Source: Clostridia bacterium
GTDB lineage: Bacteria > Bacillota > Clostridia > CAKSNL01 > HGM11501
NCBI GenBank assembly: GCA_045545475.1
Contig: JAZQAZ010000047.1
Coordinates: 1-64,000, forward strand
DNA length: 64,000 bases
Direction of reading: 5' to 3'
A model generated the notes under the pieces. It made no database searches. It worked only from the letters and a program-made list of their open reading frames with translations, and was not told where the DNA came from. Made by a program: the position numbers and the translations under genes. Below, in pieces: positions 11,108 to 58,248 of this stretch; within the stretch, counting starts at the first letter, position 1, and each line of letters starts with the position of its first letter.

Positions 11108-11201
11108 CCGAACGAATAAGGATTTGAACGAAGTCATAGGACTTTTCCTTTGAAAAGTCCGAAGGTTTTTCCGAGTAGGAAAAACTCAAATCCTAGTTCG
11201 G
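11108..11201. repeat. tRNA T-arm mirror element, copy 1 (Gln-matched)
   Basis: inverted T-arm copy AGGATTTGAAC (11119-11129), core GAAGTCATAGG plus two hairpins, direct copy TCAAATCCTAGTTCGG (11186-11201 = 11041-11056). Confidence 0.85.
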
Positions 11202-22263: not shown

Positions 22264-22770
22264 ATGGAGGCTTTATCAAATCGTAAACCGACAAGGCTAA
22301 AAGGGTATGATTACAGTATGCCGGGAGCATATTTTGTTACGGTATGCACGAAAAACAAGAAATGTATATTGGGTAAAATCGTAGGGGACGGCGATTTCGA
22401 CGTCCCGAAAATGAATTTAACAAAATGCGGCACTGTTATAGAGAAACACTTGAATTTAATGAATGAAAAATATAATCATATAAAAATTAACAGTTATGTA
22501 ATTATGCCTAATCATATTCATTTAATCTTAAATATTTCAGATTTTGTTGGCGGTGCGTCGGAAACCGCCGCACCCTACAATAATGAAATCTCAAAATTTA
22601 TATCTCTGTTAAAGCGGTATTCTAACAGAGAATGTAGCGAAAATCTTTTTCAGCGGTCATTTCACGACCATATAATACGCAATGAAAACGATTATCTTAA
22701 AATATCGGAATATATAGAAACCAATGTTTTGAAATGGAAACAGGATTGCTTTTACGACGGCACTCATTAA
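22264..22770 (+). mobile_element. REP-associated tyrosine transposase (RAYT/TnpA-REP, HUH Y1 nuclease)
   Basis: RKPTRLKGYDYS..GAYFVTVCT, YVIMPNHIH (HUH), FQRSFHDHIIR, catalytic EYIETN. Confidence 0.9.
22381..22578. repeat. inverted pair of GTAG-type REPs inside the RAYT gene
   Basis: GTAG-GGGACGGCG-ATTT-CGACGTCCC-G (22381-22407) and, on minus strand, GTAG-GGTGCGGCGG-TTT-CCGACGCACC-G (22551-22578). Confidence 0.85.
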
Positions 22771-57148: not shown

Positions 57149-57222
57149 GGCGCCATGGCCAAGTGGTAAGGCAAAGGTCTGCAACACCTATATCCCCAGT
57201 TCGAGTCTGGGTGGCGCCTCCA
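57149..57222 (+). tRNA. tRNA-Cys (GCA)
   Basis: GGCGCCA/TGGCGCC acceptor, AGGT-CTGCAAC-ACCT, U73, CCA. Confidence 0.95.
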
Positions 57223-57223
57223 G

Positions 57224-57256
57224 AAAAAAGACTTGTCAGTTGACAAGTCTTTTTTT
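57224..57256 (+). terminator. intrinsic terminator of tRNA operon
   Basis: AAAAAAGACTTGTCA-GT-TGACAAGTCTTTTTTT. Confidence 0.85.
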
Positions 57257-57432
57257 AATGAAATTTGCCTGCGTCAAGTGAAATACGCTACGCGTATGAA
57301 ATATTGCTTCGCAATGTGAAATATGCCTTGCGGCATATGAAAAGGCAAATTTTATTTCACATTTTTCTGTAAGAAAAATATTTCATAATCCGTAGGGTTA
57401 TTTCATATCAACGAAGTTGATATTTCATTAAA
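57254..57432. repeat. symmetric 'feather' hairpin array with 11-bp terminal inverted repeats
   Basis: TTTAATGAAAT...ATTTCATTAAA ends; five TGAAAW then four ATTTCA linkers separated by short hairpins. Confidence 0.9.
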
Positions 57433-57434
57433 TA

Positions 57435-57463
57435 TTTACATATTGCTAATTCTATGTTAGAAT
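57435..57463 (+). promoter_or_regulatory. probable sigma-A promoter of four-helix-bundle gene
   Basis: TTTACA-17-TAGAAT with extended TG. Confidence 0.65.
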
Positions 57464-57483
57464 GTTAGCAGAGGTGTTTAGTT

Positions 57484-57831
57484 ATGAAGGAAAACAAACT
57501 TATAGATTTATCTACGGATTTAGCAGTTAAAATTATAAAACTCTGTGAAACGATAAAAGGACATTATTCACTTGTAAATCAGTTAGAAAGAAGTTCTACA
57601 TCAATCGGGGCAAACATTCACGAAGCTAACTATGCTCACGGAAAGAACGATTTTATTGCAAAATTACAGATTGCTTTGAAAGAATGTTATGAAACAGAAT
57701 ATTGGCTCGAGCTTTTTGTAAAGTCAGAAATTTTAGATAGAGAAACTGCGAAAAATTTATATAATCAATGTGGTACAATTCGAAAAATGTTGATTTCTTC
57801 AATCAACACTGCAAAAAAGAACAGTAATTAG
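57484..57831 (+). CDS. four-helix bundle protein (23S rRNA IVS protein / Avd-like family)
   Basis: NQLERSSTSIGANIHEA, DFIAKLQIALKECYETEYWLEL; GAGGTG RBS. Confidence 0.92.
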   Translation: MKENKLIDLSTDLAVKIIKLCETIKGHYSLVNQLERSSTSIGANIHEANYAHGKNDFIAKLQIALKECYETEYWLELFVKSEILDRETAKNLYNQCGTIRKMLISSINTAKKNSN

Positions 57832-57851
57832 AGCTGGCATCTAAACCATTC

Positions 57852-57868
57852 GGCGCCGTCCAGAAAAA
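57852..57868 (+). repeat. degenerate duplicate of tRNA-Cys 3' end (att-like)
   Basis: GGCGCCGTCCAGAAAAA vs GGCGCCTCCAGAAAAA at 57213-57228 (one inserted G). Confidence 0.65.
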
Positions 57869-57872
57869 CAAG

Positions 57873-57970
57873 CACCATAAAACAGACTCGAACGAAGTCA
57901 TAGGAAAAAATGCGGAGCATTTTGACGTAGTTTTTCAAAACTGCGTTTTGAAAAATCGAGTCTGGGTGGC
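57873..57970. repeat. tRNA T-arm mirror element, copy 2 (Cys-matched)
   Basis: inverted CAGACTCGAAC (57883-57893), core GAAGTCATAGG plus two hairpins, direct TCGAGTCTGGGTGGC (57956-57970 = 57201-57215). Confidence 0.85.
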
Positions 57971-58248
57971 AAACATCGCAAGGACTAAAAAGTCTGCTAT
58001 AAAGTCATAGGCAAAAATGTAAAGCATTTTGCCGGAGGTCAGTGGTTTGGTCAGGAAAATAAATAATGCGGGCATACAGAGAAGAGGTAGCATGATAGAG
58101 CACATCTTTCTGCGAAAGCAGAACTTTTGTTTTTAGAAGGTTGTATATAGAAAATCGTTTTACAATAAATATTTTGCTTGTATCTATTTACTTTGATACT
58201 TAGGTGTGATATACTTGGAGAAAATAATATGATAAAGGGGATAAACAT

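Follow-up and report, generated by a model that had tools for sequence, protein, structure and literature searches.

Why should a short stretch of DNA behind a tRNA-Cys gene carry two copies of T-arm sequence from that gene, one inverted and one direct, on either side of a pair of hairpins? The question arises in the window analysed here, the first 64 kb of contig C47 from a 2.74-Mb genome with 41% GC (G000). The tRNA-Cys(GCA) gene (57149-57222, plus strand; ARAGORN; Rfam RF00005, 61.4 bits) is the last of a five-tRNA operon, and both arm sequences of the element at 57883-57970, hereafter the Cys element, derive from it. Our preferred answer, to which we give a probability of about 0.55, is that the Cys element is a non-autonomous insertion cassette for the T-loop/3' end of tRNA genes, with a core that acts as a folded single strand.

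Architecture and fold of the Cys element

The left arm of the Cys element (invT, CAGACTCGAAC, 57883-57893, plus strand) is an 11-nt exact reverse complement of the tRNA-Cys segment GTTCGAGTCTG, covering in that orientation G53, the T-loop and the initial 3 nt of the 3' T-stem. The right arm (dirT, TCGAGTCTGGGTGGC, 57956-57970, plus strand) is a 15-nt exact direct copy of tRNA-Cys positions 57201-57215 and runs from T55 through acceptor base 4; in the genome G011 dirT is longer, with 20 nt kept and CCA reached. Between the arms lies a 62-nt core, likewise read on the plus strand. It begins with an unpaired junction, GAAGTCATA (57894-57902; consensus TTGTCRTA or GAAGTCATA in the family alignment), followed by hairpin 1 with a C-GGA-G triloop (57903-57926, delimited by the covariation and fold analyses), a second junction, GTAG (57927-57930; GAAG, AAAG, GGAG or GTAG in the family alignment), and hairpin 2 with 11 perfect base pairs (57931-57955), which was located by inverted-repeat search and corresponds to helix 3 of the family, with 98% of its cells paired. 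A sister copy lies behind tRNA-Gln(CTG) at 11108-11201 on the plus strand (invT 11119-11129, core 11130-11185, dirT 11186-11201); it shares the layout of the Cys element, differs from it in stem sequence and has an additional outer 6-bp helix, CCGAAC/GTTCGG. A preliminary description of this DNA had proposed the T-arm mirror matched to tRNA-Cys and core lengths of 62 nt (Cys) against 56 nt (Gln). Both proposals hold, and every string that it quoted for the Cys mirror element was found in place.

Folded as single-stranded DNA, a 99-nt segment with the Cys element gave -23 kcal/mol (z = -6.7), a value equalled by 0 of 200 shuffled sequences. Pairing of invT with dirT forms helix 1, which closes a three-way junction over hairpins 1 and 2. 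In an alignment of 33 distinct sequences, pairing holds in 95.1% of cells and both partners vary in 21 of the 26 pairs, figures that flatter the structure to some extent, the alignment being model-fitted and the sequences kin. None of 500 shuffles attained any of these measures, and shifting the partner column by one to three positions left at most 62.5% of cells paired. The three helices therefore covary, in agreement with the earlier suggestion that a common layout with differing stem sequences reflects selection on structure. Two unpaired stretches are conserved: AC followed by TTGTCRTA (or GAAGTCATA) before hairpin 1, and the tetranucleotide GAAG, AAAG, GGAG or GTAG before hairpin 2. The latter is GNAG or AAAG in 32 of the 33 distinct copies when the alignment is read by eye, and is mostly not GTAG.

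An exact 10-mer, AAGTCATAGG, occurs three times in the window (11131, 57895 and 58002), against about 0.12 chance occurrences calculated for 128 kb; with one mismatch permitted there is no excess over chance in the window (4 against 3.4 expected). The third occurrence belongs to what had been described as a third core without tRNA arms. GNAG indeed follows hairpin 1 in all three cores, as GAAG (Gln), GTAG (Cys) and GGAG (third), and the third has no recognisable arms. The sequence at 57987-58037 (plus strand) comprises junction 1, hairpin 1 and GGAG, lacks hairpin 2, and in the region of 58002-58037 matches the left half of the Cys element at 75% identity over 51 nt. Its fold is weak (z = -1.7; 16 of 200 shuffles equally good), and it fails as a full member of the family, the refined covariance model described below not recovering it at E<=1. 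It is better read as a partial and decayed tandem copy of the Cys element than as an armless member; comparable decayed copies lie at array ends behind Leu-tag, Thr and Ser tRNAs and at the Cys locus of G004.

A dispersed family within one genus

A covariance model (R1) was built from three near-identical Gln copies taken from three genomes, with the Cys copy left out. R1 recovered the Cys element at 35.2 bits (E = 1.1e-7) and, run with filters off on the 64-kb window, returned only the Gln and Cys sites at E<=1e-4. The refined model, R2, scores the Cys element at 53.2 bits and finds six strong copies in its own genome, five directly after tRNA genes and one after a tRNA-Lys 3' fragment. At E<=1e-3 it gives 47 matches in 8 of the 12 genomes of the genus, which belongs to the gut Clostridia. 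There were zero matches in the two other genera of the family (the order comprises the same 14 genomes as the family) and, in a class-wide sample searched with stricter filters, zero in 146 genomes outside the genus. The prediction of a dispersed element family with arms tied to the neighbouring tRNAs is thus supported, and the proposed test, in which genomes are scanned with a covariance model and tRNA distances and arms are tabulated, came out positive.

At least three core types have this layout in common. Type A includes the Cys and Gln copies; six genomes hold 6-9 type A copies each, and G007 and G011 hold two each. Type B, with a core of about 130 nt, occurs at Leu-caa and Leu-tag, type C at Trp and Ser, and other core types were seen at Met (contig C40) and in G008. 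Rfam returned no match on the Cys element at gathering score or at E<=5, and none on the sister loci. A T-box or other riboswitch was considered and rejected, there being no Rfam match and the downstream genes being unrelated.

Linkage to tRNA genes and matching of the arms

We examined 42 copies together with their flanks. A tRNA gene lies upstream on the same strand in 37 of them, at 46-62 nt in 30 cases and at 148-660 nt in seven, the latter being second units or copies with intervening cargo. Of the five copies without a tRNA gene, three lie no more than 300 nt from the end of a contig; another is the distal member of a 6.5-kb duplication, and the last is of Lys type. Among the 29 best matches having a tRNA, 28 have a left arm that is its exact reverse complement over 8 nt or more, and all 29 have a right arm that copies it directly and without mismatch over 9 nt or more. 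Fourteen tRNA species serve as partners: Gln-ctg, Leu-caa, Leu-tag, Thr-cgt, Arg-ccg, Arg-cct, Pro-cgg, Ser-gct, Trp, Cys, Lys-ttt, Glu-ttc, Glu-ctc and Met. A model-free test, in which inverted and direct copies of at least 9 nt from the last 36 nt of each tRNA were sought within 1.5 kb, gave the same picture in the genome of the window, with both copies downstream for 11 of 35 tRNAs and both upstream for 0 of 35. One of the 11, tRNA-Asp, merely re-detects the Cys gene and its element; each of the remaining ten tRNAs is the last or sole gene of its operon.

The composition of the arms is constant, the left arm consisting of three variable T-stem bases and the complement of G53 and the T-loop, and the right arm beginning at T55 in nearly all copies. 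The base preceding the right arm is never T (C in 21, G in 7 and A in 5), and together with the start at T55 this implies that identity with the tRNA breaks between T54 and T55. In the cassette reading the arms would confer specificity for the tRNA, and as they are largely the near-universal T-loop with only three variable stem bases, re-targeting from one tRNA to another would be cheap.

Since the T-arm is itself an inverted repeat and the units are local and tandem, one may ask whether these copies could have arisen during replication, with no mobile element involved, from local duplication or from template switching at the quasi-palindrome of the T-arm. We consider this extremely improbable. 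The same core with a near-identical hairpin 2 is found at different loci, behind Leu-tag, Leu-caa, Thr-cgt and Pro-cgg, and as a close variant behind Trp, a distribution that argues against local origin and implies that the cores are young relative to the tRNAs they accompany, with the arms re-matched. In addition, the left arm of the Gln copy has AGG, complementary to the 3' stem, where the 5' stem has GGG, and loop inversion within a T-arm copy is thereby excluded.

Units, tandem arrays and insertion

The core module measures about 75-95 nt and is gene-less; a full unit, with its terminator and a copy of the tRNA end, measures about 140-210 nt. The order within a unit is tRNA 3' end, its own terminator, spacer, left arm, core and right arm. 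Units are stacked in tandem at several loci, with three at Leu-caa, three at Ser-gct (the last truncated), two and a bare core at Leu-tag, three at the tRNA-Lys 3' fragment on contig C25 and three at Arg-ccg of G004. Comparison of relatives reveals presence and absence at the same site. In G006 the site is empty, a terminator and a Gut-1-like comb coming straight after tRNA-Gln; in G009 the same place has a further 145 nt together with an exact 22-nt repeat, TCAAATCCTAGTTCGGCAACCA, extending from T55 to CCA. What separates a filled site from an empty one is a clean insertion accompanied by duplication of 22 nt of the tRNA 3' end, the two features that characterise an att-type event being present, a direct repeat of the tRNA 3' end and an empty site in a relative. 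The tRNA-Gln sites of G005, G008 and G013 are also empty and have other DNA downstream. At tRNA-Leu(caa), G000 and G003 share an identical terminator, a spacer with two base differences and the same invT, after which G000 has a type B core and G003 a type A core.

These comparisons suggest a mechanism in which units would be inserted at the T-loop/3' end of an operon-terminal tRNA gene. Site-specific insertion would duplicate the tRNA 3' end, and newer units and cargo would land beside the tRNA. The core would serve as a single-strand recognition fold, more probably in lagging-strand-template DNA than in RNA, on which a recombinase or transposase encoded elsewhere may work.

The closest described relatives in layout are the att duplications and tandem accretions at tRNA genes. 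As far as the available text of the tycheposon preprint goes (10.1101/2020.12.28.424599), tycheposons likewise have an insert flanked by a direct repeat of the tRNA 3' end, leave the tRNA intact and stack units at it. Members lacking a recombinase exist, and the recombinase-less cis-mobilizable elements (CIMEs) are comparable. In the same text the tycheposon integrases are tRNA-specific, whereas here one core family serves 14 tRNA species; and unlike tycheposons our units are 140-210 nt long, gene-less, and equipped with an inverted T-arm copy and a covarying three-way-junction core. The elements could accordingly be taken for ordinary att-site scars: classical islands or phages with an integrase would have entered at the T-loop and later been deleted, with attL/attR and a small amount of element DNA left behind, and with hairpins that are incidental or terminators. 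Direct repeats of the tRNA 3' end and tandem accretion are the hallmark of such events in that preprint, the genome has integrases beside tRNA-Lys and tRNA-Ser and a serine recombinase beside tRNA-Pro, and the tRNA-Lys 3' fragment on C25 is probably an attR of this kind. Unrelated scars, however, would not have one covarying core common to 14 tRNA species and 8 genomes, nor would they have a T-arm copy in inverted orientation at a constant distance. The units examined contained no integrase fragment, and the tycheposon text nowhere uses the word hairpin. We therefore judge a scar origin distinctly unlikely. A MITE of a DDE transposon was rejected, the arms varying with the neighbouring tRNA and the duplication being 22 nt long and ending at CCA.

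The Cys locus in related genomes

In G004 and G011 the mirror element lies 49 nt past tRNA-Cys; the distance of 660 nt in G000 exists because a later insertion parted the two. This cargo (57223-57851, plus strand, 629 nt; absent in G004 and G011) carries its own terminator (57224-57255), two Gut-1 motifs placed back to back (57276-57348 on the plus and 57349-57430 on the minus strand; Rfam RF01706, 66.3 and 50.3 bits) and an ORF for an Avd-like four-helix-bundle protein (57484-57831; PF05635, 94.9 bits). It is bounded on one side by the end of tRNA-Cys and on the other by GGCGCCGTCCAGAAAAA (57852-57868, plus strand), a relic of the former tRNA-Cys 3' end and trailer displaced by the cargo insertion, as recognised from the direct repeat TCCAGAAAAA at 57219-57228 and 57859-57868. 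In G010 a diverged copy of the relic precedes a complete terminator, AAAAACAAGCACCCGAAAGGGTGCTTGTTTTT plus GACGGCACACC, which is retained between the relic and the element. In G000 only the left half of the unit terminator and the spacer remain (57863-57882, plus strand), 31 nt of the terminator having been deleted between two CACC repeats. The outer CACC arm of the preliminary description (57873-57876) is consequently doubtful: in G000 it sits at the junction of this deletion, and its GGTG partner is absent in G004.

Other genomes hold other DNA at the Cys locus. G010 has a 4.5-kb block at the same position, with genes for a GH28 enzyme, a TIM-barrel protein and an AraC regulator, and in G011 the insert measures 6.4 kb, encodes an SLH surface protein and is enclosed by two 152-nt repeats, each of which comprises terminator, element and 3' end. 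A recombinase is absent from the 0.6-, 4.5- and 6.4-kb cargos and from every unit examined. In G007 the terminator of the G000/G010 Cys unit stands directly behind tRNA-Cys and the mirror is absent, an arrangement that speaks against part of the proposed mechanism, as it is easier to reconcile with insertion past a native terminator than with a crossover at the T-loop in which the unit supplies the terminator.

DNA or RNA as the acting form

The loops of the hairpins bear on the nature of the folded strand. Among 64 hairpin loops there are 13 C-GNA-G, 11 C-GNNA-G, 8 ambiguous CCGAAG and 2 of the complementary type. For perfect 7-bp hairpins in the whole genome the corresponding counts are 17 of 1184 (C-GNA-G) and 35 of 1222 (C-GNNA-G), and for those followed by a T-run, which are terminator-like, 1 of 219 and 16 of 196. 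All 11 C-GNNA-G loops of terminators are GNRA, against 4 of 11 in the mirror elements, where the other 7 are GNYA. Considering that GNRA is the RNA rule, this hints that the mirror loops rather fit the DNA GNA/GNNA rule; GCGNAGC and GCGNNAGC are extraordinarily stable DNA mini-hairpins according to the excerpts available of two reports (PMC13037366, PMC3201870). GC skew is positive across the entire window, which places the hairpin strand on the lagging-strand template, exposed in replication, a placement that is not independent of tRNA orientation. Two observations cut against a clean strand call, namely the only mildly asymmetric mismatches (22 G-T against 10 A-C overall) and the GNA-type loop of hairpin 2 in the Cys copy, which lies on the minus strand.

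The same data have to be weighed for a small functional RNA, for instance a mimic of, or antisense to, the tRNA 3' half, expressed by terminator read-through or, at Cys, within the 3' UTR of the Avd-like gene. Covariation and the orientation on the tRNA strand are what such an RNA would show, helix 3 (hairpin 2) conserves T-G wobble (13 T-G against 0 A-C cells), and the outer helix of the Gln copy repeats five bases of the acceptor 5' strand. An Avd-like gene promoter at 57435-57463 and a terminator at 58108-58123 bracket the Cys element, which, judged from these predicted signals, would be transcribed as part of the Avd-like gene 3' UTR. Against an RNA role, Rfam gave no match, most units are preceded by a terminator, no promoter-like site is listed in 57766-58186, and the core is kept while the CCA end and part of the acceptor are gone in most copies. 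The loops follow the DNA and not the RNA rule, and copies appear and disappear between close genomes. We find an RNA function highly unlikely.

Public runs were searched as contigs only, each holding at most 0.41 of the sampled words. The RNA contigs covered tRNAs and not the Gln element, which carries no weight as to its transcription, and within this coverage the contigs yielded no circle junction or excision product. A go-back joint (X1, 11295 to 11119) was considered as a circle and rejected, as it corresponds to the G010-type allele.

Candidate enzymes

The genome encodes five tyrosine recombinases, two Xer-like and three in the islands beside tRNA-Lys and tRNA-Ser, and nine serine recombinases. 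None of the five tyrosine recombinases is an integron integrase, the best TIGR02249 score being 58.5 against a cut-off of 265 bits in a genome that is 95% complete. The serine recombinase beside tRNA-Pro belongs to an ordinary island in which the 5' part of the tRNA is duplicated and no mirror unit is present. The sole reverse transcriptase of the genome, of retron type, has no link to the elements. An IS110-type bridge-RNA element was also rejected, the DEDD recombinase domain PF01548 having 0 matches in the genome.

Integron attC sites and the attP(+) site of CTX phage are recombination sites that act as folded single strands, forming an imperfect hairpin of variable sequence and conserved structure. 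They resemble the present elements in several respects: they are 60-140 nt long, their closing stem reproduces the target-site duplex, and attC sites form cassette-like arrays in which some cassettes are empty or carry promoterless cargo. The attC core sites are R'' RYYYAAC and R' GTTRRRY. The left arms here end in TTGAAC or TCGAAC, in which a G takes the place of a required Y, and the right arms start with TCAA or TCGA and without GT, so that an attC site was rejected. Unlike in integrons, a tRNA gene serves as platform instead of attI or dif, and the fold is a three-way junction, not a stem of R and L boxes. With IntI absent and the core-site consensus unmatched, an integron reading was discarded.

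Could the elements be moved instead by Y1 HUH enzymes of RAYT or IS200/IS605 type, as REP-like sequences acting on the lagging-strand template? Hairpins with an NNAG foot would then be bound as single-stranded DNA, and invT would be an extended guide pairing with the target T-loop region and with the element's own right end. The excerpts available of PMC3479197 and PMC3116915 describe REP/REPIN sequences with RAYT, and IS200/IS605 ends, as short extragenic hairpins with a 5'-foot tetranucleotide ending in AG; in the former, E. coli REPs have GTAG at the 5' foot of the hairpin, and A3 and G4 set the cleavage site. The likeness of GNAG to a REP foot had been pointed out earlier and stands as a resemblance rather than as proof of homology, with A and G at positions 3-4 before hairpin 2 in 32 of 33 distinct copies. 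An intact HUH/Y protein is encoded at C30:129615-130121 (PF01797, 25.7 bits, cut-off 23), the genome has six paralogous RAYT-like Y1 HUH matches, one of them in the window at 22276-22758, and each of the six genomes with 6-9 type A copies has RAYT-like genes. The DNA mini-hairpin type of the loops and the lagging-strand template position of the hairpin strand also agree with such an enzyme, and single-stranded DNA is the likely form in both systems.

Several findings weaken this proposal, which on balance we consider unlikely. The only NCBIfam match of the C30 protein, REP_Tyr_transpos, scores 68.7 bits, under the cut-off of 80, and no element flanks the RAYT-like genes at C30:129615 or at 22276-22758 of the window. 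No RAYT-like gene turned up in G007 or G011, two genomes with elements; G008, conversely, has such genes together with other mirror core types and no type A. Their co-occurrence was not accepted as proof, being imperfect and confounded by kinship among the genomes. HUH insertion proceeds with no target duplication, and the element would consequently have to carry the 22-nt repeat itself. Finally, REPs are known in hundreds of dispersed copies that are not bound to tRNA genes, whereas there are 6-9 copies per genome here, linked to tRNAs and with arms matched to the target.

The cassette reading could also take a rather less probable form, which we put forward tentatively, as a re-targetable, guide-like insertion of single-stranded DNA. 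The core would recruit a host enzyme, Y1 HUH or Xer-like, and an arm pairing with the T-loop and T-stem would select the tRNA, with integron-like arrays behind many tRNA genes as the outcome, composed of terminators, small modules and cargo that lacks a recombinase.

Relation to described elements and wider occurrence

The elements lack the defining features of att, attC and REP/IS200 systems alike, and in our literature search we found no published description of these tRNA-side elements. One candidate for a prior description, PMC5217627, concerns, in the part available, an unrelated palindrome behind Methanopyrus tRNA genes. The family looks like an undescribed kind of tiny insertion cassette. 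Transfer RNA genes are classic landing sites of islands and phages, each case being explained by a tRNA-specific integrase; here one small non-coding core serves at least 14 tRNAs, with arms that track the target and no enzyme gene aboard. If the units are mobile, they would represent an unrecognised and very compact way of aiming DNA insertion at the conserved ends of RNA genes, would explain part of the fine-scale variation behind the tRNA genes of gut bacteria (terminator swaps, cassettes, Gut-1 and Avd-like cargo), and would offer a defined 80-nt substrate for identifying the enzyme.

Members were also sought in a contig collection of 596 Gb. A scan with the exact 14-mer GAACTTGTCATAGG returned 120 loci and no true member; two flagged loci were GC-rich coding-like sequence, and a 14-mer is too short for 596 Gb. 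The gapped pattern GAACTTGTCRTAGG N14-32 CCGAAG returned 118 loci, of which three were false positives with arms pairing by chance and four (L204, L234, L289 and L291) are true members, each behind its matching tRNA.

Modules and a deletion behind tRNA-Cys

The Gut-1/Avd-like module directly behind tRNA-Cys (window 57223-57868) is bounded by GGCGCC(G)TCCAGAAAAA repeats and is itself an insertion, placed at the extreme 3' end of the tRNA gene. Related Gut-1 modules were located in the source genome at C4:20546-20700, C48:43114-43646, C48:~54568 and C9:1854-1939 (contig:positions), and tRNA-Trp, tRNA-Tyr, tRNA-Arg-cct and tRNA-Lys-ctt each have such a module directly downstream. Many of the Gut-1 hairpins carry C-GNA-G triloops on both strands, which hints at a role at the DNA level.

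Beside the Cys mirror element a stretch of 31 nt bounded by two CACC repeats has been deleted in the source genome, and with it the 3' half of the terminator, whereas the allele of G010, a genome of the same genus, retains the terminator (window 57863-57882 versus positions 850-905 of that allele, L312). In a further genome of the genus, G011, two 152-nt repeats, each made up of the terminator, the mirror element and the tRNA-Cys 3' end, bound a 6.4-kb block that encodes a 1434-aa SLH/VWA surface protein (L171, G011:C10:49000-58000), and beyond this block lie three tandem units of 230 nt with Gut-1-like hairpins.

Mirror-type units with other cores

Two further, larger cores, type B of about 130 nt and type C of about 150 nt, share the inverted-arm/direct-arm layout and stand behind tRNA-Leu-caa, Leu-tag, Trp and Ser-gct in the source genome (C2:90400-91190, C20:13960-14160, C4:20350-20530 and C40:59100-59260). 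The C-type copies have GCCGCCGGTGGCGGATGAAG in common, and Rfam gave no match for either core type at these loci. In G008, also of this genus, the covariance model of type A found no type A unit; mirror-type units are present at two loci (L326 and L351), namely a divergent A-like unit behind tRNA-Arg-ccg, with a 20-nt direct copy reaching CCA, and two units of a different core type behind tRNA-Lys-ctt, whose arms span the T-stem/acceptor junction.

Recombinase and RAYT-like genes

On contig C25 of the source genome (9900-10640), three type A units stand in tandem after a 3' fragment of tRNA-Lys(ttt) whose sequence starts within the anticodon arm, and on contig C40 (22425-23264) a tyrosine integrase gene adjoins an intact tRNA-Lys. 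These two sites are probably the attR and attL of a single island divided between the contigs. At the locus C6:3075-5060 a large serine recombinase is encoded by an open frame of 574 codons, which converges on tRNA-Pro(cgg), and a partial copy of the 5' part of the tRNA lies about 100 nt past this site; the locus is an ordinary island at tRNA-Pro.

No repeats were found flanking the intact RAYT-like Y1 HUH genes at window 22276-22758 (+ strand) and C30:129615-130121; the source genome holds six paralogous matches to this family, two of them broken.
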